The notes under the pieces were generated by a model. It ran no database searches and was not told the origin of the DNA. It worked only from the letters and a program-made list of their open reading frames with translations. The position numbers were made by a program, and so were the translations under genes. Positions 3,111 to 61,697 of a DNA stretch of 64,000 bases are shown here, one piece after another (the first letter of the stretch is position 1; each line of letters begins with the position of its first letter). This DNA is from Conger conger (Eukaryota): assembly GCF_963514075.1 (NCBI RefSeq), contig NC_083761.1:49925777-49989776 (forward strand). The letters run 5' to 3'.

Positions 3111-6100
3111 GTGCAAAGGTTTTAGGCAGGTGTATTGTATATATTGAATATCAAATCAATATTTGGTGTGACCACCCTTTGCCTTCAAAACAGCATCAAT
3201 TCTTCTAGGTATACTTGCAGTTTTTAAAGGAACTTGGCAGGTAGGTTGTTCCAAACCTCTTGGAGAACTAGCCACAGTTCTTCTGTGGATTTAGGCAGCC
3301 TCAAATGCTTTGTGTAATCCCAGACAGACTCAATGACGTTGAGATCAGGGCTCTGTGGGGGCCATACCATCACTTCCAGGACTCCTTGTTCTTCTTTACG
3401 CTGAAGATAGTTCTCAATGACATTGGCTGTATGTTTGGGGTCGTTGTCCTGCTGCAGAATACATTTTGGGCCAATTAGATGCCTCCCTGATGGTATTGCA
3501 TGATGGTTAATATCTGCCTGTACTTCTCAGCATTGAGGAGACCATTCATTCTATTTGCAGAAATGCAGCCACAAACTTGCAAGGAACCTCCATCATGCCT
3601 CACTGTTGCCTGCAGACACTCAATCTTGTACCGCTCTCCAGCCCTTCGGCGAACAAACTGCTTTCTGCTACAGCCGAATATTTCACATTTTTCTGGACCT
3701 TTGTTTTCGTGCATAGTTGAGTCGCTTTGCCTTGTTTCCACGTCGGAAGTATGACTTTTTGGCTGCAATTCTTCCATGAAGACATTACATTAGATTACAT
3801 TATTGGCATTTGGCAGACGCTGTTATCCAGAGCGACGTACAACAAAGTGCATACCCATAACCAGGGATAAGTGTGCTGAAAGACCCTAGAGGGAAGTACA
3901 ATTTCAGTTGCTACCCGTACAACAAAGATAAGGACCAGGGCCTATCTTTTTTTTATTTTTATTTATTTATTTTTTTTGGGGGAGAGATTCTACAGTTCTG
4001 ACCTCAACGGGGAGTTTGTTCCATCACCGTGGAGCCAGAACAGACAGTAGTCGTGAGCGTGAGGTGGAGGCTCGTAGAGGGGGAGGTGCCAAGCGGCCTG
4101 TGGAGGCTGAACGAAGAGGTCTGGCAGGGGTGTAGGGTCTGATGATTGTTTGTAGGTAAGCTGGGGAAGACCCCTTAACAGCTTGGAAGGCTAGCACCAA
4201 TGTTTTGAATTTGATGCGAGCCATGACAGGCAGCCAGTCAAGGGAAGTAAATTGGGGTGACGTGTGAGTATTTGGGAAGGTTGAAGACCAGACGAGCTGC
4301 TGCATTCTGGCTAAGTTGGAAGGGTCTGATGGCGGACGCTGGGAGGCCAGCCAAGAGGGAATTGCAGTAGTCCAGGCGGGACAGAACCATCACTTGGACC
4401 AGGAGCTGGGTCGAGTAGGGGGTGAGAAAGGGGCGGATTCTCCGTATGTTGTATAGGAAGAACCTGCATGACCGGGTCACTGCCGCAATGTTCTCGGAAA
4501 GGGACAGTCTGCTGTCCATCACCACGCCGAGGTTCCTTGCACTGGGTGATGGCGTGAGTGTGGTATCCCCGAGGGAAATGAAGAGATCCAGATGGGGAGA
4601 GGTATTAGCAGGGATGAATATCATTTCAGTCTTACCTGGTTTGAGCTTTAGATGGTGGTTGTCCATCCAGCTCTGGATGTCACTCAGGCAAGCAGAGATA
4701 CGGGCAGACACCTGTGTATCAGATGGTAGGAATGAGATGAAGAGTTGGGTATCGTCCGCATAGCAGTGGTAGGATAGCCCATGTGCAGTGATCACAGGGC
4801 CAAGGGAACGAGTATAAAGAGAAAAAAGAAGCGGGCCTAGGACTGAGCCCCAGGGAACTCCTGTGGCAAGGGGCCGAGGTGTCGATACCGTACCAGCCCA
4901 GGCAACCTGGAAGGAGCGACCAGAGAGGTAGGACTCAATCCAGTCCAGGGCTGTGCCACAGATGCCCGTTGCTGACAGGGTGGACAGGAGGATGGAGTGA
5001 TCCACAGTGTCGAAGGCAGCAGAGAGAACTAGAAGAATGAGGACAGAGGAGAGGGAGGCTGCTCGTGCGGCATGGAGCGACTCACTGACGAAGAGGAGCG
5101 CGGTCTCTGTCGAGTGGCCCGATCTGAAGCAAGACTGATGGGGGTCTAGCAGGTTGTTGTTAGAAAAGAAAGAAGAAAGTTGAGTAGAGGCAGCTTGTTC
5201 TATGGTTTTAGAAAGAAAAGGAAGAAGAGATACCGGGCGGTAGTTCTGGATGATGGAGGGATCCAGAGTAGGCTTTTTTAGCAGCGGAGTGATGTGGGCC
5301 CTCTTGGAGGATGCTGGAAAACAGCCGGAAGACAGGGAGGAGTTGACAAGGGAGGTGACAAATGGGAGAATGTCAGGTGTGATAGTCTGGAGAAGAGAAG
5401 AGGGGATAGGGTCAAGGGCACAGGTTGTAGGGCGGTGGGAGAGGAGGAGTTGAGAAACATCTGAGTCTGTAAGGGGGGAGAAAGTGGAAAAGGAAGGGAT
5501 GGGCCTGGGGGGGGGGGGAAATGGCACAGTAAGGGAGGCGGTGGTTGTAAAGGATCTGCGGATGACTGTGACCTTCTCATCGAAAAAAATCAGCGAAGTC
5601 TTCAGTAGTGAAGGAGGACTGAGGCGGAGGAGGCGGTGCATTGAGGAGAGAGGAGAAAATGGAGAACAGTTTCCGGGGGTTAGAAGCGGAGTTCTGAATT
5701 TGCGTCTGATAGTATTTCGCTTTGGCGGCAGTGACAGCGGAAGAGAATACCGCCAGGAAAGACCACTTCTGATTAGACTTCTCCGCACAGTAGTTGGGTG
5801 TACCTGGGTCCCACTGGTTTCTGCCAATTCTGAGCTGATGGTACTGCTGGACATCTTCCGATTGCGAAGGGAAGTAAGCATGATGTGTCTTTCATCCAAG
5901 TTTCCTTGGCCAACCACTGGGTCTACGGTCCTCAACGTTGCCCATTTCTTTGTGCTTCTTCAACAGAGTTTGGACAGCACATCTGGAAACCCCTGTCTGC
6001 CTTGAAATTTCTGCCTGGGAGAGACCTTGCTGATGCAGCATAACTACCTTGAGTCTTGTTGCTGTGCTCAGTCTTGCCGCTGTGCTCAGTCTTGCCATGG

Positions 6101-6365
6101 TGTATGACATTAAATCTTCAGCAACCTCACCAGAGTTTGGCTGTTCCTCACCCAGTTTTAAACCAGTTTTTCAGTTAATGATTGCGTTTAAACCTACATA
6201 TTAAATTGATGATCATTAGCTTCTGTTTGGTATAACTGGTTAATCACACCTGACTATATGCCTACAACATCCCTGACTTTGTGCAAGTGTACCTACAAGA
6301 ATTGATGCTGGTTTGAAGGCAAAGGGTAGTCACACAAATATTGATTTGATTTAGATTTTTCTTCT
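3110..6365 (-). mobile_element. Tc1-like DNA transposon carrying a degraded transposase (N-terminal HTH at ~5892-6110, C-terminal DNDPKH/SPDLN region at ~3125-3780). It is interrupted by a LINE fragment.
   Basis: Minus-strand translation gives LSQAEISRQTGVSRCAVQTLLKKHKEMGNVEDRRPSGWPRK (5' part) and ...[23 protein letters not shown].. (3' part). Both halves are separated by a foreign insertion at 3781-5785. Confidence 0.75.
3781..5785 (-). mobile_element. 3' fragment of an L2/CR1-clade LINE, made of the reverse-transcriptase C-terminal half plus the 3' tail. It is inserted into the Tc1 element.
   Basis: ORF 4238..5935 contains RT motifs (YRPVSLLPFLSKTIE, FRSGHSTETALL, LLVLSAAFDTVDH, CYADDTQL). 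The minus-sense 3' tail tgtacgtcgctctggataacagcgtctgccaaatgcc(aatgt)n is shared with the tRNA-SINE at 30868-31099. Confidence 0.75.
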
Positions 6366-7260
6366 GTTCACTCACTTTGCATTTTGTTAATTGATAAAAA
6401 CAAACTATTAACATTTCAATTTTTGAAAGCATTCATACTTTAGCGGTAGTTTGAATTTGCGTGTCAACGAATAAACTCAGATCTTCTGTTAACTTTAAGA
6501 AACGACATAACGTTACAATAAGCCATATTACCAACCAACAGCTACAGAAATTCTCTGATAACTCAAATACTGTAGCATTCAATTCCCTGTTTGGATTTTA
6601 ATTTTAAGATTGCTTGCTAGAACTAGAACTGTAGCTTGTCAATTGCTTGGTTTATAATGTAAACCTGGTGAACGTGCATATATTTCTAACTGAGCTTACC
6701 ATTTCAGCTTCAGAAAACATCTACAAATCAGTTTCAGTTAAACGGTTCACACCCCTAGTTTACAATCAACATTATTTCTTGTTCAGGTAACATTCATTTT
6801 TCAGGAAACATCATTTTCCTGAACCTTATTCATGTGCTCTGTCCTTTTACACTGGTCTGAACTCAGTCTTTCTTGACTCTCGCTATTGTCTTCATCATTG
6901 ATTAAATAATATTGCTGGTAACTATCACTTCCATCTCTTACTCATTCAATTAATTCAATTACTGAGCCATCTAACATCAATATTTTTCACAGCAGCATCC
7001 AAAACTTTCTAGGCTATTATTACCATAATTCATTGGACAGGGACACATTTTTCAAAATTTCAATGACAAAGAAGTGCAGCCTCAGCTTTCATTTGAGCGT
7101 ATTTGCATCAAAAACCTCTTTGTTACTCAAGCATTATATTTCAGGTTGTTGCGTGATGAAGTGTCGTCCAATACGTTTGGAGACATTTGGTTTTATCTGA
7201 CCAGATGAAATATGTCTGTAGACTTTGAGGTGATATGCTTTGAATCATGGGCATTTCCTT

Positions 7261-33826: not shown

Positions 33827-34153
33827 CCTGTGAAATGTGAATATAAACCGTACCTGAGGCACTTCATCAACACAAGAGCATTACATTTGTTATAACATTG
33901 AAACTGAAATCATGCCCATGTATTCAGCAACGGTGCAGTGCAATTTGTGTGTGTTCTTTTTGTTTTTTATTTTTTACCTCTCGCCTTATTGTCTCTGCAG
34001 GGTTTGTGCTGAAGGAAGATTGCAGAATGTTGTGTTCTTGAGTGCACACAGCACCAATAAAGCACATTAAATGGAAACATTAATGAAGCATAATTGCTTC
34101 TTAAGCAGCTGGGTTTGGATTTACATTTTGACATCTGAAAAGTGAAAACGCAC

Positions 34154-34542
34154 CTGTACCGTTGCCCCAGCGATTACTACAGCAGCAGGAGGAGGAGGTG
34201 GGCCAGCCATGGTAACATTAGCTGTGGTGACTGACATGGCAACCACTTCACCTTCTTGATTTCCTAGAGCAGATGGATGAGGAACTGACATGGCAGGAGG
34301 GGGAAGAGGAGGAGGAACAGAGAGATGGAGTAAGGAGAGAGGTACAGTCTGTCTCTCCACTCGTCCGACTGCTGCTGCCGCTCCTTCCTTCATTCCTGCC
34401 TCCCTCTCTCTGGCAGCTTTGTCCTTCATACGGATTCCTGTGTGGACTGACTGGTGGCGCCGCAGGTTGTAGCTGTTCTTGAACTGCTTGTTACAAAGGG
34501 GGCAGATATGGGCAGCTCGAGCAGGCCGAGACACTGGCTTTG
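34154..34542 (-). CDS. MAZ: MAZ exon carrying the first C2H2 zinc finger (HICPLCNKQFKNSYNLRRHQSVHTG) and a Pro/Ala-rich linker.
   Basis: Matches human YICALCAKEFKNGYNLRRHEAIHTG followed by ...MVPLSLLSVPQL. ORF is 34121..34534. The acceptor is ctcag|CA and the donor is ACAG|gtgcgt. Confidence 0.85.
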
Positions 34543-38974: not shown

Positions 38975-40875
38975 TACAATGGAGGAAATAAGTATTGAAC
39001 ACATCAACATTTTGTCCAGTAAATGTATTTCCAATGAGCCTATTCAAGTGAAATTTGCACCAGACTTTGGTATTCACTCAAAAAATCCAGACAAAAAAAT
39101 CGAAACATTGAAGTCCATATGTAAATAAAGTTATGTGTAATGAAGTGGAATGAAACAGGAAAAAAGTATTGAACACACTAAGAAAAACAGCAAGGAAAGG
39201 CAAGGAACCAGCTGAAAACCATAACTAATTAGGAGGCAACTCTACCTCCAATCTGTGCTAATTAATGTCAGCTGGGTTGGAATATCCATCCATCCATCCA
39301 TTATCTTAACCCGCTTATCCTGAACAGGGTCGCAGGGGGGCTGGAGCCTATCCCAGCATACATTGGGCGAAAGGCAGGAATACACCCTGGACAGGTCGCC
39401 AGTCCATCGCAGGGCACACACACCATTCACTCACACACTCATACCTATGGGCAATTTAGACTCTCCAATCAGTCTAACCTGCATGTCTTTGGACTGTGGG
39501 AGGAAACCGGAGTACCCGGAGGAAACCCACGCAGACACGGGGAGAACATGCAAACTCCGCCCGGGATTCAAACCCAGGACCTCCTTGCTGTGAGGTGGCA
39601 GTACTACCCACTGCACCATCCGTGCCGCCTTGGGTTAGAATATATTGATGAATTTTTTTTTTTTTGTCACCAAGGTGCCACACAAGAAACATCTAATGAT
39701 GGGTAAAAGTAAAGTGCTCTCTTGAGACCTTCGCAACCAGATTGTTGCAAAACATGAAAATGGAATTGGCTACAGACGTAATTTCACAACTTCTGAATCT
39801 TCCAGTAAGCACCATTGGGGGCATTATCCGTAAGTGGAAGCAACATCACTCCACCATCAACCGGCCACGCACAGGAGCTCCTCGCAAGATTTCTGATCAG
39901 GGAGTCAGAAGGATACTTAGAAGAGTAGCCAAAGAGCCAAGGACCACTCCAGAAAGACTTGGAGGCAGCAGGTACAACTGTGACAGAAAGGACAGTAGGC
40001 AATGCACTCCACCGCCATGGCCTCTGTGCACGCTCAGCCCGCAAGACTCCACTACTGAAAAAAAGACATGTTGAAGCTCGTTTAAAGTTTGCCAAACAAC
40101 ATCTGGACAAGCCAGTGAACTACTGGGAGCATGTACTCTGGTCAGATGAGACGAAAATTGAACTTTTTGGCGGTCACACAACACACCATGTTTGGAGGAC
40201 AAATGGCACTGCACATCACCCGAATAACACTATACCAACAGTGAAGTTTGGAGGTGGAAGTATCATAGCGCGGGGCTGTTTCTCTTCTCGTGGTACTGGC
40301 AGACTTCATATCATTGAAGGAACAAGGATGAGACGTGGGTGGACCTTCCAGCAGGACAACGATCCAAAGCATACAGCAAAGGAAACTCGCAATTGGTTTC
40401 AGAGAAAGAAAATCAACTTGTTGGAATGGCCCAGTCAATCACCTGACTTAAACCCAACTGAAAATTTTTGGAAGCATGTGAAGATCCAGATTCACAAGAG
40501 GGCCCCCTGCAATCTTAAAGATTTAAAGACAATCTGTGTAGAGGAATGGGCCAAAATCACACCTGAATACTGCGGGCGATTAGTTACTTCACACAGAAAG
40601 CGCATTGAAACTGTCATTACAAACAAAGGCTTCTCCATTGAGTATTGAATTAATTTCAGTTAGTGTGTTCAATACTTTTTTCCTATGTCATTCCACTTTA
40701 TTACACATAACTTTATTTACATATGGACTTTAATGTTTAGATTTTTTGTCTGGACTTCTTGAGTTAATTCCACAGTCTGGTGCAAATTTCACTTGAATGG
40801 CCTCATTGGAAATACATTTACTGGACAAAATGTTGATGTACATGTTGATGTTCAATACTTATTTCCCCCATTGTA
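38975..40875 (+). mobile_element. Tc1-like transposon with long (~200 bp) terminal inverted repeats and a near-complete but frameshifted transposase. It lies in CDIPT intron 5 and itself carries a SINE insertion.
   Basis: Left end tacaatggaggaaataagtattgaacac... matches right end ...gttcaatacttatttcccccattgta, inverted over ~200 bp. ORFs 39742..40074 and 39959..40648 encode a Tc1 transposase ([35 protein letters not shown]) containing a frameshift and a deletion. Confidence 0.8.
39284..39629 (-). mobile_element. tRNA-derived SINE of the widespread teleost family (sense begins GGCGGCACGGATGGTGCAGTGGG and ends with a (GGAT)n tail), inserted into the Tc1 element with a ~13-bp target-site duplication.
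   Basis: The reverse complement reads ggcggcacggatggtgcagtgggtagtactgccacctcacagcaaggaggtcctgggtt...tggatggatggatgg. The flanks gctgggttggaatat | ...| ttgggttagaatat form the TSD. Confidence 0.8.
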
Positions 40876-47168: not shown

Positions 47169-48038
47169 CTAAGAGTATGAGAGGTGTGAGCCGTTGGAAA
47201 TGTGAGAGGTGACCGAGGTACTCCGGCTCAGTCCCCCCTCCCCGCCTCCAGAACCCCCTGGCCCCCCACCGGAGGCAGTTCTCCTCAGGGGCTGGGGGCT
47301 GTTCCTCAGGGCCATCAAACTAGGGCCCCTCACTGCCAGGCCACCACCCCCGCTCCCACTGTAGCCCCCCTGAGAGGAGGAGGACGAGGAGGAGGAGGGC
47401 GGGGAAGAGGAGGAGAGAGAAATTGGGGGTGGGGGAGGCGGAGGTGGGAGGAGGGCCAGGGACTGAGATGAGGAGTGGGAGGGCAAGTGGTGGGAGTGGG
47501 CGTGGGAGTGGGACAAATGGCTCCCTCCTCCCCCCCATTCCCGCTCTCTCTCCCGCTCTCTCTCCCGCTCCCGGTAAAGGTGCGGGGTGCTCTGGTGGTG
47601 GTAGTGCTGTTGGAGGTAGTGGTGGTGGTGGTGGTGGGAGGATGAGGAGGAAGAGGAGGAGGAAGCCGAGGAGTGGGAGGAATGGACGCCCCCCTCCCGG
47701 CTGGAGACGGACTCGGCGCGGCCGAACCCGCTGCTCCCGCTGCAGCTGTTCTGGCTCCTCCAGGAGGGCGGCGCCCCCGAGTTCTGGGGGTGCACGCCGT
47801 GCGTCCAGTGGCTGCCGGAGCGAGGCACGGGGCGCGAGGGCCAGCCGCCTGACGCGGCGGGGGGGTTGGGGTAGCCCTGGTTAAAGGCCTCGGCGGGGAT
47901 GCCCGTCAGCGCCATGTTGCTGAAGCCCAGCCGCATGCTCTCCGAGTCGAAGGCCTCGATCTCGCGGGCCTGGCGCTCCAGCAGGGTCCGGATTCGCTCC
48001 GAGCGCTCGTTCTGGAGAGAGAGCATCTCCTCCTCTAT
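47169..48038 (-). CDS. TAOK2: TAOK2 terminal coding exon of the short (beta-type) isoform. It encodes [51 protein letters not shown]... then a long low-complexity tail (His6, Ser runs, (RE)6, Pro8, Gly runs) ending ...NGSHLSYS, with a stop at 47169.
   Basis: The start is near-identical to the human TAOK2 C-terminal region [40 protein letters not shown]. The end motif [12 protein letters not shown] matches human SHILNGSSHFYS. The acceptor is cctcag|ATA. ORF is 47169..48026. Confidence 0.8.
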
Positions 48039-48117: not shown

Positions 48118-48300
48118 CCTCTGCTCCAGCAGCGCCCGGCGGATGGACACCCTCTGCTCCAGGTCCTTGGCCTCGCGCTCGTGCTGAGAGTCGGTGTGGA
48201 TCTTGATCTTGCTCTGGTAGGCGTTCAGCAGCTCCAGCTCCTGCTGCAGCTGCATGCGCAGCACCTGGTACTCGGCCTCCTGAGACTCATCCAATCGCAG
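48118..48300 (-). CDS. TAOK2: TAOK2 exon encoding [61 protein letters not shown].
   Basis: Matches human [61 protein letters not shown]. The acceptor is cctcag|CTG and the donor is AGG|gtgagg. Length is 183 nt. Confidence 0.85.
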
Positions 48301-51077: not shown

Positions 51078-51362
<285 letters not shown>

Positions 51363-55470: not shown

Positions 55471-58043
55471 GTATAACAGTTAAACGTTTCCTTTGATGCT
55501 TAGTAAAAAATGAGTGATTATAACAAGGAGGCATAAAGAGGGGGGGCAATACACACTGAAGACACTGTGGTGATCAGGCTATACACATTGTTCGGAGTAA
55601 ATTCACATTTTAACTGGAATACATATTAACTAAAACTATAACAATAAAAATAATATTCCCAAACCACCAATCTGATTCTACCCAGTGCTTAACCCTACAC
55701 TATATGATGCAGATAAAGGACTGCAATCCATTTGACGCTCCCGAACTTCAGAGTCTTCTGAATGAACTGACAGAGAATTAAATTCCAATTAAGGTGGTAA
55801 CCTGTCTGACAAGAAATTTCAAGTCTTTGAATTGTTAAATCCGTCATGTATAGAATTTGGCAGCTGTAATATCTGGGCTGGGAGTAGTCTGGTTCTTTGT
55901 CAACTGCATCAGCACTGCACCGTTAATAAGGATGCATACCCTGTAGTGTCAATATTACAATATGTTATGGGTATGTAATTTCCTGTGCCAATGACAAGCC
56001 TTCATAACTGACAACCACATTAAAAGTCAATTGATATCATGAGGAGAAAAAACCTCAAGGCCTCTTCATGAGATAAAATCACATTTAACATCCACCATTA
56101 CACCATCATGGCATTATCAGTAACCATACATACAACATGCTTCTTTTAGAATAACAAAATAAACTGGAAACAATATACACTTTTACAAAAAGCAGAATAT
56201 GGATGGACGCTGGAACTACACTGAGCTACAGACAATGGGGAGAAGAGAGAACATTGTATGAGTACATGTTCAATCTCACATACAACATACCGGTAACACA
56301 GAGGAGGCACAAAACATCTTTTTACCCCCTCCCCCCCTCCCAAATTGGAAAGCCCAATAACCCCAATGACTGGGTCCCCGATATAAATTCAGGAGAGTGC
56401 AGTCAAGCCCAAGCTCCCCTCTGAGAGAGGAGTTGGAGGAAGGCACTTTGTGAACAGCTTCACAGGTGGACTCACAGGCACCCAACTGAACAGCAGGAGA
56501 AAGCTGAGACTCGGATCCCCGCTGACTTAATTGGCCCTAACCCCTGGGGTGCTACCAGGATGTGGCCCCAGACCATAGACTACAATGAGAATGGCACCTT
56601 AACTGGATAAGCCACCCCAAAACTTCTCTTCAAGGTAATCATTGCACTCAACCCGATTCTGTTTATGGAGCTTGATTAACAATCCAACAACTGGAAGCAG
56701 AACCAATACCAAAAGATAAGATTACACATCTTATGTAATGCATATTCACAGAAATTGGCCAAATACAAAGCACTATTGCCCAAAGGTTTAACCTACAGAT
56801 ACAGTGAGCAGCATAATTCACTGGACAATGACACATTTATTATTTTGGTTCTGTACTCTGTCATTGTCAAGGATACAATGACAATGAGGAGTGTGGACTG
56901 TTAGCTTTAATTTGGGGGTATTTTCAGCCATATCAGATGAACAGTTTAGAAATGGTCCCCAAATTTTAAGTTAAGTATATGTTGAATTGGCTTCACAGAT
57001 GTGTTTCATGCAGGCAGGTATATTCATTTGTGTCATTAGTAAATGCAGAAGAAAGCTGTTGATGTCTAGTCTTGATTCTAGACTTACAATTGCCTTTGGA
57101 GATTGTTGGGAGTGTGACAATATGAGGAAGACCGCAGTCAATTCAAATTAAGCTGGCCGTCATATGGCTCAGAAATCAATCAATAAATCAGGAACATTGC
57201 AAGAATCCTGGGCATGCCCAAATAAATCAACCGTTTGGTTCATTATTAACAAGAAAAAAAACAACTGGTGAACTCAATTAAGTCAAAAGACCCAGTTGAC
57301 AGAAAAAGACCACTGTAGTGGATGACCCGAGGATACTCTCTATGGTGACAATGGCCTAACAGATCAAAAATCCTCCTGGATGCAGGTGTGTTAAAGTCTA
57401 CCATACATGGAAAACTACACCAGCAGGACTACAGAGGGTACACACTACAAGATGCAAACCACTGAAAAGCCTGAGGAACAGAAAGAGTTATGAATAGCTA
57501 TGTATATATGGTTTTATAATTTCTAAATGGTTAATATGATATGGATGAAAATACCCTGAAATTGAAGCCTACAGTCCCCTTCTGTGTCACTGTCCAATGA
57601 ATTATGGTGCTCACAGTATATAGAAATGCGGCACAGATTTATAATGTAAAGAGCAGTAATGCCGTTGCAACATAATATTGGTATCATCCTAGTGATTTGT
57701 ACTGGTTATTCAGTGAATTAGTTGGATAACAAAACAGATTGTTAATCAAAGACAGTTAATAAGAATATGTTGAGAGTTACGACTGATTTTAAGTTAAGGT
57801 CAGTGCCTCTTCGGTTTCCAGCTCACAAACTACCACTGACACATACAGAACGACATATAGACTTTCAAAATAACATTCATATTCAGTCGAAAAGATGGAC
57901 CTTTTGGGGTTGATGCTGGATCCAACAACAGTGAATCATGATTTAAGAATGAGACAAAAGTGCACGTCACACACATGCATATGCGTACAGACGGACAACG
58001 AAAGAAACGTTTGCAATCACACTCGCACAAACCTCTCTTAATA

Positions 58044-59720
58044 CTATCTCCAGGGAACCACCTTTCCTCTCACGCTTCTCCCTGAAGCTGTTCGTCTCAA
58101 CCCACACTCCCACCTACCCCCATCTCGAAACAACCTGTCCCTCTCCTCCCTCCTCCTCCTCTCCCTCTCTCTTTGCCTCCTCTGCCTCTCTCTCCGTTCC
58201 CGCACCTCACGAGGCAACAGTCTGGGTAACCTGCTGGCTCGCTCTTCTCTCAACAAACCAAAGGTTCTCAGCTTAGCCAAGTAGCCCTGCGGCAGTTCTC
58301 TGAGGACCCGGCTGGCCAGCTTCAGCACTACAGAGTTTGCCCAGTCAGCGAGGACCCCTATCGGGCGCCTAAGAAAACGCCTGACCCAAAGCGTACATCG
58401 AGAAGCCAGAGAGCCTCGATTTTGCCTGGAGTGATACTCCATGGGGAGGGTCCTGAGGGGGACAGGGATTTGGGATTGGCGTACCCCCCAATTCCTGCCT
58501 GCTTTCGGGAACATGTCATACAAACTCCTCTCAGCAAGACCGCCCAGAAGCGACTGACAAACCGTGAATAAGGGCTTGGGGAGTCGGAACAGAAATCTGA
58601 CCCAGAGGCGGTTGAGTTTCTTTGGGGCTTTCTGAAGGAAAACCCGGGCGGGGCGGACCACCAGAACCACGAGGAGGTAGAGGGAGAGGAAAAGGGAGGG
58701 CGAGCTGAGGAAAGAGGCCGAGACCAGAGTCACGGGGATGTAATAGAGGCCCAGGCTTAGCGAAAGACCCAGGCTGAAGAGACCACAGCCCCAAAGAGCC
58801 AGGGACAGGTAGAGGGTAAGGGAGATGGAGCAGCAGGACCGCAGGAAGAGGTAGGAGAAGAAAAGGGCAAGGAGCGCGAGCTCTCCAGACAGGAGGAGCG
58901 AGGAAAGGGAGGGGAGCGGAGGAGAGCGGCGGAGGGAGAGCAGGAAGACGGAGAGGAGGATGAGCACGGGGAGGGAGGGGCGGGCGGCGGCGGAGAGGGA
59001 CAGCAGGAGGCAGATGCAGTGGGAGAGCAGGGAGGAGAGGGAGAGCTGGCCGGGCTGGGGAGGGGGAGGGGCGGGGAGGGGAGGGGGCTCCAAATCTAAA
59101 GAGTCGGAGAAGTAGAACTCGGAGAGCTCGTCGGCCTCCCGCTTCCTCCTCCGCTCGGCACTCCTCCCCTGCTCCACGGAGAGAGACATCAGCTCCGAGG
59201 GACAGCCGTCCCCCACGCCCCGGCCTTCCTCCTCATCGACGTCCGACTCCGTTTCAGTCTCGCTCCCTTCTTCGTCCTCCCATTCCTCTCCCTCCAGCAA
59301 CATCTCGCCACTCCCTGCCCCTCCGCCTCTCCACTGCTCCTCAGCCACCGTGGCCTCCTCTGTCTCCTGCTCTCCGGGGCTCAAACTCTCCCCCTCTCTC
59401 CCCCTCTCTGTGCCGGCGCCATCGGTGGGCCGGCTCTCCTCCCAGCATTCCTCCGCCTCCCGCGTTTCAGTCTCTGCTATCCCCTCCTCTTCCCCGTTCC
59501 TTCCCTCCCCGCCCCGGTCTTCTCCTCTCTCCGCGTCCCTCGGCCCGGACGCCCCCGGGGCCTCCGAGTCCTCCCTCGAAGCGCTACCGTCCTCTCCTCC
59601 GCCCTCCTCCCCCTCCGCCCCGCCTCCCGGGGCGAGGGGCCCTCCCTCCTCCCTCCCGGCCACTCCGTCGGGCTGGTCCCCCTCCCCGGGCCCCTCCTGC
59701 CGCTGCTCAGTCTCACTCAC
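58044..59720 (-). CDS. TAOK2: TAOK2 long-isoform (alpha-type) terminal exon extension. It reads through the 59721 donor and encodes an acidic Gly/Glu-rich region, a long Leu-rich hydrophobic segment and a basic Arg-rich tail ending ...VVPWR, with a stop codon at 58044-58046.
   Basis: A 624-aa uninterrupted ORF (58044..59918) is continuous with the preceding exon. Its architecture and several motifs parallel the human TAOK2 isoform-1 C-terminus: [10 protein letters not shown] vs [18 protein letters not shown] vs RIPRLLPR, and the terminal PWR. Confidence 0.6.
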
Positions 59721-59960
59721 TTTGAGGCTCTTGGGCTGCTGGCGCACCTCCACGGCGTGCTTCTGGCGCAGCTCCTGCTCGCGCCGCTTGTTGTACTCCA
59801 GCTGGTTGGTGAGCTCGGTCTGGTGCTGCGTGCGGATCAGGTCGGCCCGCGTGCGCTGCACCGAGGCCAGCTGCCGGAACTCTAGCTCCTGCGTGGATTC
59901 GTGGTGCCGCAGCAGCATGGCGCACTCCAGGTCCTTCTGCGTCTGCTTCTTATTCAGGTC
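59721..59960 (-). CDS. TAOK2: TAOK2 exon encoding [80 protein letters not shown]. Its donor is used by the short beta-type isoform.
   Basis: Matches human [80 protein letters not shown]. The acceptor is ccccag|GAC and the donor is CTCAAA|gtgagtgag. Length is 240 nt. Confidence 0.85.
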
Positions 59961-60423
59961 CTGGGGGAGGGCGGGGGCATTGGGTCAGACACAGACTCTG
60001 CTTCCACGAAGAAAAGGAACCGACAGTCGCAAAGAGAAACAAGCCCTGAAACAGCACCCCCTTGAGCTGTCGTCGGACAATACTTTACTTGATGCCTGAT
60101 GTTCATAGTAACAATGCAGTTAAAATAAGCTTTAAACAGATAGATGGTAGACTAACTTGAAGTAGTCAGTGCAAGTTCACTATGGTAGCCAAGATGTGCA
60201 TTGTAGACGGTTGCTGCCAACGCTGCAGGTCAAACCGAGACTGACCTAAGTTATAATGGCTTCATTGATGCCTTGTGGCAAACACATAATACTACAGTGT
60301 GACAAACCAACGTGAATCCATAGTCCTCCCCCTAAGGGAAGTTTTTCAACCAGTAACTGCACTGGGAGACATACAAAGGCAGATGTTCAACCAGCGCCCT
60401 CTACAAGAGGGACGCAGCAGAGA

Positions 60424-60516
60424 GTAACCGCAGTGGGAGACAGACAGGCACGCAGGCAGGCATGCAGGCAGGCAGGCAGGCACGCAGGCAGGCAGGCAGG
60501 CAGGCAGGCAGGCACG

Positions 60517-60548
<32 letters not shown>

Positions 60549-60705
60549 CACGCAGGCACGCAGGCACGCAGGCACGCAGGCACGCAGAGCAACCGCACTG
60601 GGAGACACAGGCATAGTAACCGCACTGGGAGACACAGGCAGAGTAACCGCACTGGGAGACACACACAGGCAGAGTAACCGCACTGGGAGACACAGGCAGG
60701 CAGAC
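60424..60705. repeat. Compound minisatellite inside a TAOK2 intron, made of (GCAGGCAG)n with GCACGCAG variants followed by four copies of a ~31-bp unit gagtaaccgcactgggagacacaggca.
   Basis: Tandem periodicity is visible directly. It generates repeat-driven ORFs on both strands (60433..60807+, 60401..60664-). Confidence 0.85.
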
Positions 60706-60728
60706 GCAGAGCCGGGCCGCAGCGGTAC

Positions 60729-60932
60729 CTCTCTCAGCAGGTCCTGCTCCAGGTTGTGTCGCGCCAGCAGCATCTTCCTCTTGTACTGCCTGCACTGCAG
60801 CTCGTAGTACTGCCTCTGCCTGCGCAAGAGCCCGGCCTCCTCCTCCGCCTGCATCTGCTGCAGACACTCTTTCTGCCGCACCAGCCACTCCTGCTTCTCC
60901 CGCTTAGGGGTGGACTGGTTCTCGTTCAGCTC
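60729..60932 (-). CDS. TAOK2: TAOK2 exon encoding [68 protein letters not shown].
   Basis: Near-identical to human [68 protein letters not shown]. The acceptor is cgcgcag|GAG and the donor is GAG|gtaccg. Length is 204 nt. Confidence 0.85.
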
Positions 60933-61697
60933 CTGCGCGCGGGGGGAAGAGTTAAAGCAGCGCGCGGGGGGAAGAGTTAAAGCAGAGCACCGAGGCCAGG
61001 CTTCCCCGCAGAGCCGCTTGCGTGCGTGTAACAAAGCACCGCTCAAACGCACAAACACAGATCAGTGCATTTACTGCTCTTAGAGCAGGGAACCCAGAGC
61101 TGTGAGAGAAACCGGGCAGGGAAAAAATGAAATAAAAGCGGATAAGTCACTGGCAACATTATCTTTGATCAGGGAAAGTTTATGCTGCTGCAGCAAGCTA
61201 GCTTATTAGCGAGCCTGATTTTCATTCCAAAGACTGCCTTACAGCTTGCTCGCTGGGTAGTGAACATCGATTGTGAAACGGCCGCCTAGGAAGCAAGCTT
61301 AACGTCATGCAAACGAGGAAACAGGAGAGCTAGTAACTAAGTTAACTAAATTTAGGTCAAATGCCTACCAACTTTACTTCAAGAATGTTAACAATGTCCC
61401 CAATTAAATATTCCTACGAAGATTCTACACTTCTTGGACAAGACTGACAGATTTCACCTGGCTGAAAAAACAAATGTAAGGTAATGGTGAAGTGAATGCA
61501 GGCAGGCAATATAAAAAATACTATTGTTTAAGAGTATATTAAGAGTAAAATTAAATCAGGCACATTTTCCTGAAAAAAAAAAAAGACAGAACAGAGTGAT
61601 GACACGGGGCTCCATTGGAACGCAGCACGGTTAAACGAGCAGGAACGGAACGGGAGCGAAGGCGTTTTTAGCCAGGCTGCTTTTGGGTTTGTGGTAC

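Follow-up and report, generated by a model that had tools for sequence, protein, structure and literature searches.

In the TAOK2 gene of Conger conger, a long reading frame continuing past a splice donor is a genuine and conserved coding exon, equivalent to the membrane-anchoring, microtubule-binding tail of human TAOK2-alpha. The stretch of DNA analysed, 64,000 nucleotides in length, is referred to here as the window, and its TAOK2 exons all lie on the minus strand. Composite terminal exons arise when splicing bypasses a 5' splice site and the transcript is instead polyadenylated further down the intron, so that an internal exon becomes terminal and supplies a new C-terminus. The region is very probably a composite alternative terminal exon of a teleost TAOK2 gene, encoding a tail of the TAOK2-alpha type. 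The tail exon is an ordinary ortholog of a known feature and not a new kind of thing. It resembles composite terminal exons and intronic polyadenylation isoforms in its exon logic and changed C-terminus. However, compared with composite terminal exons generally, the extension in the window is exceptional in length, at 558 codons, and its conservation goes back to the vertebrate ancestor.

The exon common to both forms is a coiled-coil exon at 59721..59960, equivalent to the last exon shared by the alpha and beta isoforms of human TAOK2. It opens at 59960 with the acceptor ...cccccag/GACCTG (slashes mark junctions), and its translation starts DLNKKQ... and ends ...VRQQPKSLK. At the DNA level it is 90% identical (blastn) to positions 1093-1344 of a spliced cDNA from another teleost, Logan contig L001. 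Upstream coiled-coil exons of TAOK2 lie at about 63413-63162, 61829-61698 and 60935-60729, as located by tblastn with P0025 and blastn with L001; the kinase domain is beyond the window edge. The shared exon closes with a consensus donor, AAA/GTGAGTGAG, which is read as K/VSE when left unspliced. The donor itself, GTGAGTGA (59713..59720), supplies codons for Val-Ser-Glu/Asp in the alpha form, and its letters are the same in the window and in the fish loci L001, L003, L004, L005 and L006. The K/V junction is likewise present in L001 and L003-L006, and also in the mammalian genomic ORFs P0078 and P0080 (K/VRAG) and in caecilians (K/VGP). The first residue of the tail is Val in fish, mammals, caecilians and sharks.

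The minus-strand ORF spans 58044..59918 and encodes 624 aa counted from the first ATG; an exact look-up of this product among public assemblies gave no match. Beyond the donor, 1674 nt (558 codons) are free of stops, with the frame ending in ...GKVVPWR and a TAG stop codon at 58044..58046. None of 20,000 composition-preserving shuffles (150-nt blocks) kept the frame open, the mean being 13 stops, and the other five frames of the identical 1674 nt contain 5-14 stops each. GC content is 54-74% along the ORF and falls to 37% directly past the stop. The initial annotation had described a 624-codon ORF crossing a functional donor at 59721 and remaining open for ~1.7 kb past it, and every one of these features is present at the coordinates it gave. 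The splice that it proposed, from CTCAAA/gtgagtgag at 59721 to 51362 (QQPKSLK/SKELQIK), also stands, with both junctions in phase 0.

The tail consists of four parts in series. The first is an alpha-specific linker (59091..59720), rich in Gly and Glu (25% E, 19% G) and carrying a net charge of -48. This linker is fast-evolving, with a pN of 0.49 against L001 in its acidic part. The exception is a block near its 3' end (about 59231-59091), where EEGRGV(G/A)DGCPSE and DELSEFYF are conserved and Ka/Ks is 0.18; within it GDGCPS is invariant from fish to mammals. The second part is a hydrophobic block of ~140 residues (58629..59048; 32% Leu, 20% Ser), in which Kyte-Doolittle peaks and an AlphaFold2 model indicate six membrane helices (model residues 62-83, 87-102, 109-134, 138-160, 164-176 and 178-201; pLDDT 80-95). 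It is predicted to be a multi-pass membrane region like the human six-helix segment. The block has a Ka/Ks of 0.15 and can be aligned to the mammalian and hagfish blocks, including the part of human TAOK2-alpha that experiments identify as the ER anchor.

The third part is a basic helical post-membrane region (58263..58628; net charge +19) with AlphaFold2 helices at residues 204-240 and 275-323 and a Ka/Ks of 0.12 against L001. One amphipathic basic 18-residue segment in this region has a hydrophobic moment of 0.71. Human TAOK2 carries an amphipathic, positively charged helix after its membrane block (1146-1162); the fish segment aligned to it is weakly alignable and falls outside the top amphipathic windows. 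The first of two Sx[IL]P motifs, SQIPVP, is at 58475-58458, and its columns S..PVP are invariant. The second, SRLP (58224..58235), aligns with the EB1-binding TRIP motif of human TAOK2. Its S and P do not vary in the alignment, fish and mammals alike conserve the flanking LLPR, and AlphaFold2 models the segment as disordered. It is a putative SxIP-type EB motif, in a Leu variant, within a basic disordered tail. The fourth part is the Arg-rich C-terminal tail (58047..58223; 38% Arg), which ends in GKVVPWR and has a Ka/Ks of 0.06 against L001. It is the counterpart of the microtubule-binding tail of human TAOK2, and the sequences from fish, mammals, caecilians, hagfish and chicken all end in PWR. 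Measured composition bears out the earlier description of an acidic G/E stretch, a Leu-rich hydrophobic region and an Arg-rich tail ending VVPWR, and the hydropathy and membrane prediction proposed alongside it yields the ~140-aa hydropathy block and six AlphaFold2 helices. No Pfam family matches the tail.

Homology to the mammalian tail is well supported. In composition-adjusted BLASTP the 558-aa tail matches a mammalian TAOK2-alpha tail with E=2e-12 (30% identity over 238 aa) and a hagfish TAO kinase with E=5e-13. A phmmer search of 5.8 billion sequences identified 76 fish homologs at E<=1e-140 and two mammalian alpha tails at E ~1e-13, and ~40 columns are invariant across these 78. Fish and mammalian tails share the colinear motifs GDGCPS, LLSH, SYL, RLWxRxLxRL, (F/Y)PK, SxxPVP, GLLRxERxSRxPRLLPR and terminal PWR. 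An exhaustive profile search of 1.84 billion representatives matched solely vertebrate TAO2-type proteins, among them a 1276-aa 'TAO2 isoform X1' of Centroberyx and a 1132-aa isoform X1 of a caecilian. Related tails are present in sharks, caecilians, birds and hagfish. The chicken protein A0A8V0X2E6 has the colinear motifs but a pairwise E-value of 0.6, and was left out of the evidence. Across the 3' 395 codons of the tail, Ka/Ks against L001 is 0.06-0.18, and the conserved parts of the tail are under strong purifying selection. The proposal that the tail mirrors human TAOK2 isoform 1 is upheld, as the E-value of 2e-12 and the colinear motifs represent similarity beyond composition. Purifying selection, the shuffles and the composition-corrected similarity likewise back the earlier argument that this conservation reflects function and not an artefact of GC/CT-rich sequence. 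Literature searches on fish taok2 isoforms found no discussion of the alpha tail in fish.

The closest known system is human and mouse TAOK2 isoform alpha (isoform 1, 1235 aa; PSK1-alpha), in which the tail comprises residues about 746-1235. The human alpha and beta forms are alike up to residue 745 and separate at the exon boundary that is also the branch point in fish, and beta-type exons follow downstream in an intron-exon layout like that of the window (PMC11014455). In both, the read-through follows ...QQPKSLK and its first extra residue is Val. The order of parts is also shared: a variable acidic/Pro-rich linker, GDGCPS, six hydrophobic helices, a basic helical region, SxxPVP, GLLRxERxSRxPRLLPR with its Sx[IL]P motif, and the terminal PWR. 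However, identity between fish and mammalian alpha tails is about 30-36%, and the fish linker is far more acidic (E/G-rich) than the mammalian one. Fish have DELSEFYF, an extra Arg/Glu-rich helix and a 13-residue segment before PWR, all absent from mammals. Where fish have SRLP as the EB-type motif, mammals have TRIP/SRIP; at the upstream Sx[IL]P motif, fish have SQIP and mammals SRLP. Function of the tail is known from mammalian cells only. Experiments there identify the human TAOK2-alpha tail as an ER anchor that also binds microtubules and EB1, with residues 941-1066, containing six predicted transmembrane helices, sufficient for ER targeting, and with the EB1-binding TRIP motif at residues 1192-1195 tested directly (PMC8699727).

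The window gene encodes the beta C-terminus in addition to the alpha one, and its beta exons are intact. The splice partner of the 59721 donor is the first beta-type exon (51150..51362), which begins ag/TCC AAA GAG at 51362 and ends ...DMLSTQA. The second (48118..48300) ends ...ALLEQR, and the last (47169..48038 including the stop; coding 48038-47172) starts IEEEMLSLQ. These three exons splice in phase to give a 501-aa C-terminus, for which the best match is a Melanotaenia TAO2-like isoform X2 (80% identity over 100% of the length).

A read-through mRNA exists in at least one other teleost. In Logan contig L001, a spliced cDNA, the last part of the kinase domain is followed by the upstream exons, which lead across the unspliced donor into the tail and then into more than 2.4 kb of 3'UTR. 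As a de Bruijn-graph contig, L001 could in principle chain spliced mRNA with unspliced pre-mRNA through the shared exon. At six fish loci the reading frame of the tail continues that of the upstream exon. The intron-retaining transcripts that the initial annotation proposed looking for are thus found in a second teleost, and the alpha form is probably expressed in Conger conger as well. It may be a minor product, because the donor is a perfect consensus. The suggestion that polyadenylation takes place near 58000 fares less well, as there is no canonical signal at that position. A hexamer scan of 58043-51363 found no AATAAA or ATTAAA from the alpha stop down to 56911 (~1.1 kb); the nearest canonical signals are an ATTAAA from 56911 and an AATAAA from 56841 (56836..56911). 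These are candidate intronic sites, and the poly(A) site of the alpha form would presumably be of this type. In blastn the 3'UTR of L001 revealed no conserved 3'UTR in the window, and the positions of poly(A) hexamers are not conserved among the loci compared.

Taken together with the mammalian work, the arrangement suggests two routes. Use of the donor after 59721 would join the shared exon to 51362 and produce the all-coiled-coil beta C-terminus. Skipping of the donor, with intronic cleavage and polyadenylation, would make its GT part of a Val codon and allow 558 further codons to be translated. In the alpha product the kinase and coiled coils would then be followed by a disordered acidic linker and six membrane helices; after these would come the basic helical region, two Sx[IL]P motifs and the Arg-rich C-terminus with its final PWR. 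Judging by homology to human TAOK2-alpha, the protein would anchor its kinase in the ER membrane through the hydrophobic block and bind microtubules and EB proteins through the basic tail, tethering the ER to microtubules. For fish, the membrane topology and the binding to ER or microtubules are inferred.

In humans, TAOK2 maps to the 16p11.2 interval associated with autism, and its two forms differ in role: alpha is an ER-microtubule tether, and the targets of beta are actin/RhoA and translation. The window shows that fish produce the coding sequence for the two C-termini by the exon logic known from humans, and fish models therefore lend themselves to isoform-specific studies. Any knock-down or edit of 'taok2' in fish should reckon with the alpha tail. 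Conservation across vertebrates, hagfish included, points to the residues of greatest likely importance in the membrane anchor and in both Sx[IL]P motifs. Current understanding of TAOK2 is unchanged by these observations, and is extended by orthology.

Existing annotations treat the tail inconsistently: some fish annotations model it as a nested gene of its own, 'TAO2-like', and others lack it. A full-length alpha-type fish isoform is already annotated in RefSeq, and the feature is less novel than the initial annotation implied. This protein, XP_071777646.2 (TAO2 isoform X1 of Centroberyx gerrardi, 1276 aa), matches the tail profile with E=2e-200; it is an automated annotation with no experimental characterisation. 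It has the junction QQPKSLK/VSES... and a tail ending RPWR, and its locus shares with the window a downstream C2H2 zinc-finger gene on the TAOK2 strand. The conserved part of its tail is roughly 70% identical to that of the window, whereas its acidic linker is unrelated in sequence. Models of the tail alone, named TAO2 or TAO2-like by NCBI, have been annotated in Hoplias (540 aa), Amia (577 aa) and Menidia (469 aa), and the Hoplias model is nested, on the same strand, inside a 1123-aa kinase gene model.

The tail could be an ancient semi-autonomous module, inherited from the vertebrate ancestor and also expressed alone in some lineages as a kinase-less ER-microtubule tether. The tail is already present in hagfish, and such expression would account for the nested 'TAO2-like' gene in several fish annotations; even so, we regard this as unlikely. 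A related and quite improbable reading makes the tail a separate nested gene, with an internal promoter, a transcript start within or just upstream of the exon, and a kinase-less membrane protein as product. The tail-only models of Hoplias, Amia and Menidia agree with it, as does the position of the Hoplias model inside the kinase gene. However, the Hoplias model merely begins at the first ATG, 6 codons past the donor. Among the fish loci the first in-frame Met after the donor occurs at 6, 32, 46, 124, 139 or 342 codons. No independent start is conserved, because this position varies and in L003 follows most of the membrane block. In addition, the frame is continuous with the upstream exon at every locus, and both L001 and the Centroberyx and caecilian isoform X1 models in RefSeq join the tail to the kinase. 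For mammals, experiments show the tail to belong to the full-length kinase (PMC8699727).

A third reading would regard the exon as a decaying relic in this lineage, with sequence intact, expression lost and beta the sole product. The perfect consensus of the donor and the lack of a nearby poly(A) hexamer could be taken in this sense. We consider it very unlikely, as the 558-codon frame contains no stop or frameshift and keeps every motif invariant in other fish, and the identical perfect donor is found in L001, where read-through mRNA is seen. Finally, an open frame arising as a non-functional by-product of a GC-/GA-/CT-rich low-complexity intron, its read-through RNA an untranslated pre-mRNA or retained intron, would fit the poor conservation of the acidic part, the lack of a Pfam family and the long open runs in other frames, which reach 252 codons and include an antisense ORF of 249 aa at 59350..60099, but is extremely improbable and effectively refuted by the conservation data (the Ka/Ks values, the invariant columns and the composition-corrected similarity to mammalian and hagfish tails), as well as being at odds with the shuffles and the sharp drop in GC exactly at the stop codon.

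In a neighbour-joining tree, the tail from the window is basal to the otophysan and acanthomorph tails and falls inside Amia, a placement that may point to an early-branching teleost. The tree as a whole resembles that of a single ortholog group.

On the minus strand, the window includes the 3' two-thirds of a TAOK2 gene, whose upstream coiled-coil exons map to about 63413–63162, 61829–61698 and 60935–60729, followed by an exon shared between two alternative C-termini (59960–59721), which starts with GACCTG directly after its acceptor (...ccccag) and ends in ...VRQQPKSLK. The donor described in the initial annotation is present, with CTC AAA (final exon base 59721) running into GTGAGTGAG; the donor sequence GTGAGTGA is identical across six fish loci and matches the consensus perfectly. 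Its proposed partner is likewise found in phase 0 at 51362 (...ctttctag, then TCC AAA GAG CTG CAG ATC AAA), at the start of the beta-type exons (51362–51150, 48300–48118 and 48038–47172). Inside this 8.3-kb intron, the frame remains open for 1674 nt (558 codons) beyond the donor, up to a TAG at 58046–58044, and the encoded alpha tail ends in GKVVPWR. Counted from its first ATG in a mechanical ORF list, the frame (58044..59918, minus strand) comprises the 624 aa originally claimed; a search for identical copies of this ORF in public assemblies yielded none. Since the beta exons, when spliced, encode a C-terminus that matches Melanotaenia 'TAO2-like isoform X2' along its whole length at 80% identity, alongside the open alpha tail, both alternative C-termini are intact. 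A compact version of the layout occurs in a genomic fish contig, L004 (tail ORF 314–2173; beta exons 4417–4632, 4822–5007 and 6000–6824). Within the last beta exon of the window, short tandem repeats produce Ser, His and Arg-Glu runs (47374–47637, minus strand), and this portion is strongly divergent among fish species.

A spliced cDNA from another teleost (L001, a 5366-nt Logan contig of run SRR26148947) begins where the kinase domain ends (...HHFLCRERPMTVVMDL). Its segments match, in order, separate exons of the window (63404–63177, 61828–61694, 60934–60725 and 59962–59711), and it then runs through unspliced GTGAGTGAG into the tail and continues for 2.4 kb more, indicating a 3' UTR of at least 2.4 kb. 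Kinase and tail are also joined in RefSeq models from Centroberyx (isoform X1, 1276 aa) and caecilians (isoform X1, 1132 aa). The fish contigs L003 and L004 contain the upstream intron and acceptor; they are therefore genomic and uninformative on expression. The poly(A) site anticipated near 58000 is not borne out, the closest canonical hexamers being ATTAAA at 56911 and AATAAA at 56841.

Alternatively, the tail could be an independent nested gene with real tail-only transcripts, as suggested by NCBI models that cover just the tail in Hoplias (540 aa), Amia (577 aa) and Menidia (469 aa). In Hoplias malabaricus (CM080107.1, 9982–11623) it is a separate 'TAO2-like' gene in RefSeq (XP_066518861.1). 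This model lies, in the same orientation, inside a 1123-aa TAOK2 kinase gene model, and its start is simply the first ATG, six codons past the shared donor. The first in-frame methionine after the donor ranges from 6 to 342 codons between fish loci, and the tail frame is continuous with the upstream exon at every one of them. An independent gene is thus very improbable, and the tail-only fish models probably come from annotation that systematically splits the alpha isoform.

As a query, the 558-aa tail retrieves 76 fish proteins with E≤1e-140 and two mammalian proteins with E of about 1e-13, both TAOK2-alpha tails with an ALPPWR end. Pairwise BLASTP with compositional adjustment against a mammalian TAOK2-alpha tail gives E=2e-12 (30% identity, 238 aa), so the suggested match to the human long isoform extends beyond composition. 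The short motif matches also hold and are colinear (GDGCPS, LLSH, SYL.L, RLW.R.L.RL, (F/Y)PK, S..PVP, GLLR.ER.SR.PRLLPR and terminal PWR). Two mammalian genomic ORFs (P0078 and P0080) have a junction like that of fish (...QQPKSLK/VRAGQ), and the human isoforms share residues 1–745 and diverge from there (PMC11014455). Judged from these alignments, the fish and human long-isoform tails are homologous.

Only 17 hits came back from an exhaustive profile search covering 1.84 billion cluster representatives. Those that carry names come from teleosts, Amia, sharks (Chiloscyllium, Carcharodon), a ray (Narcine), caecilians and birds (Vidua), and are either TAO-family kinases or uncharacterised proteins; among those without names are mammalian tails (P0080) and, via cluster membership, a hagfish kinase. 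TAOK1, TAOK3 and invertebrates gave no hits, and the tail is specific to the TAOK2 lineage. In hagfish, the protein (Eptatretus burgeri A0A8C4QB92, residues 832–1140) aligns with the window tail over 279 aa (E=5e-13) and ends in HPRPWR. That this kinase has the tail implies that the tail was present in the vertebrate ancestor, before the split of cyclostomes and jawed vertebrates. In the hagfish model a long stretch of acidic tandem repeats precedes the tail, and a TAO coiled-coil region is not evident. Bird TAO2-like proteins (Gallus gallus A0A8V0X2E6; Vidua chalybeata P0085/P0102) show RLWLRFLLRLP, FPRA, SRLPVP, SRIPRLAPR and RRPWR colinearly, after inserts that are highly repetitive and rich in His/Thr or Pro. 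Pairwise, bird and fish tails score below significance (E 0.6), which suggests a very divergent tail in birds.

The acidic, Leu-rich and basic regions follow one another as first described. An acidic linker with a net charge of -48 (25% E, 19% G) precedes a hydrophobic block of about 140 residues (32% Leu, 20% Ser), a helical region that is basic (net charge +19), a brief disordered stretch with SRLP, and an Arg-rich end (38% Arg). In a codon-level comparison with the L001 cDNA (Nei-Gojobori), Ka/Ks is 0.08 for the shared exon, 0.18 for a conserved motif block near the linker's 3' end, 0.15 for the hydrophobic block, 0.12 for the post-membrane region and 0.06 for the basic tail, values that are approximate because synonymous sites are saturated, although their direction is clear. 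The acidic linker is essentially without sequence constraint (pN 0.49 vs L001), yet its frame is kept. When the 78 homologs from the database (76 fish, 2 mammalian) are compared, roughly 40 alignment columns do not vary, and over 100 show conservation of 90% or more.

None of 20,000 shuffles of the 1674-nt stretch that kept local composition (150-nt blocks) was stop-free (mean 13 stops), the remaining five frames contain 5–14 stops each, and GC content falls from 54–74% across the ORF to 37% straight after the stop; the read-through ORF is therefore confirmed as observed, and a chance product of GC-rich low-complexity sequence is ruled out. A compositional artefact is excluded by this result, the mammalian homology and purifying selection. 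A 249-aa Ser/Pro-rich antisense ORF (59350–60099, plus strand) overlapping the acidic linker and shared exon looks like a by-product of the GC-rich coding opposite strand rather than a gene. In the intron 5' of the shared exon, a (CAGGCAGG)x18 microsatellite and an adjoining 27/58-nt tandem repeat (60441–60699) account for long spurious Cys/Leu/Pro/Ala-rich ORFs at 60346–61058.

AlphaFold2, given a 79-sequence alignment, predicts six helices in the hydrophobic block (pLDDT 80–95), then more helices, with SRLP in a disordered segment and a helix rich in Arg/Glu after it; overall confidence is modest (mean pLDDT 69, pTM 0.39). For human TAOK2, the corresponding six helices (941–1066) are sufficient for ER targeting in cells, an amphipathic helix (1146–1162) confines the protein to ER subdomains, residues 1162–1235 bind microtubules directly (KD about 0.7 uM), and TRIP (1192–1195) mediates EB1 plus-end tracking (PMC8699727). 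The fish alpha form would, by orthology, be a kinase that is embedded in the ER and tethers it to microtubules. Isoform choice could reflect competition between use of the perfect-consensus donor and cleavage and polyadenylation inside the intron. Vertebrates share two conserved Sx[IL]P motifs (58475–58458 and 58235–58224, minus strand), with Ile and Leu swapped by lineage: SQIPVP and SRLP in fish, but SRLPVP and S/TRIP in mammals. Tests in human cells have covered the second motif only, so the first may be a further EB-binding site that has gone unrecognised.

The interpretation as a fish alpha-type exon of TAOK2 is supported. The tail is a known isoform type already annotated for some fish; TAOK2 of this species is absent from the protein database searched (best beta C-terminus match 80%), and the window contributes one more alpha-tail ortholog. 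Full-text literature searches found no discussion of the tail in fish, so its conservation there seems to be recorded in databases and undiscussed in the literature searched. The finding is of value for annotation and for fish models of the 16p11.2 gene TAOK2 that take isoforms into account, rather than as new biology.

TAOK2 is followed downstream, on its own strand, by a C2H2 zinc-finger exon (PARAAHICPLCNKQFKNSYNLRRHQSVHTG..., 34121–34534, minus). As this neighbour also occurs in two further fish loci (L004, 11142–11636; L006, 37594–42115), the synteny is conserved. Two transposable-element remnants are a 565-aa ORF, in which a reverse-transcriptase domain (RVT_1, E=1e-32) is joined to a Tc3-type HTH fragment (4238–5935, minus), and a Tc1/mariner-type transposase fragment (HTH_Tnp_Tc3_2, DDE_3; 39959–40648, plus). 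Another comparison sequence, L002 (a Logan SRR25169343 contig), has CTGTCTCTTATACACATCT at its 3' end, presumably the Nextera transposase adapter, in which case the assembly of this public contig has taken in adapter sequence.
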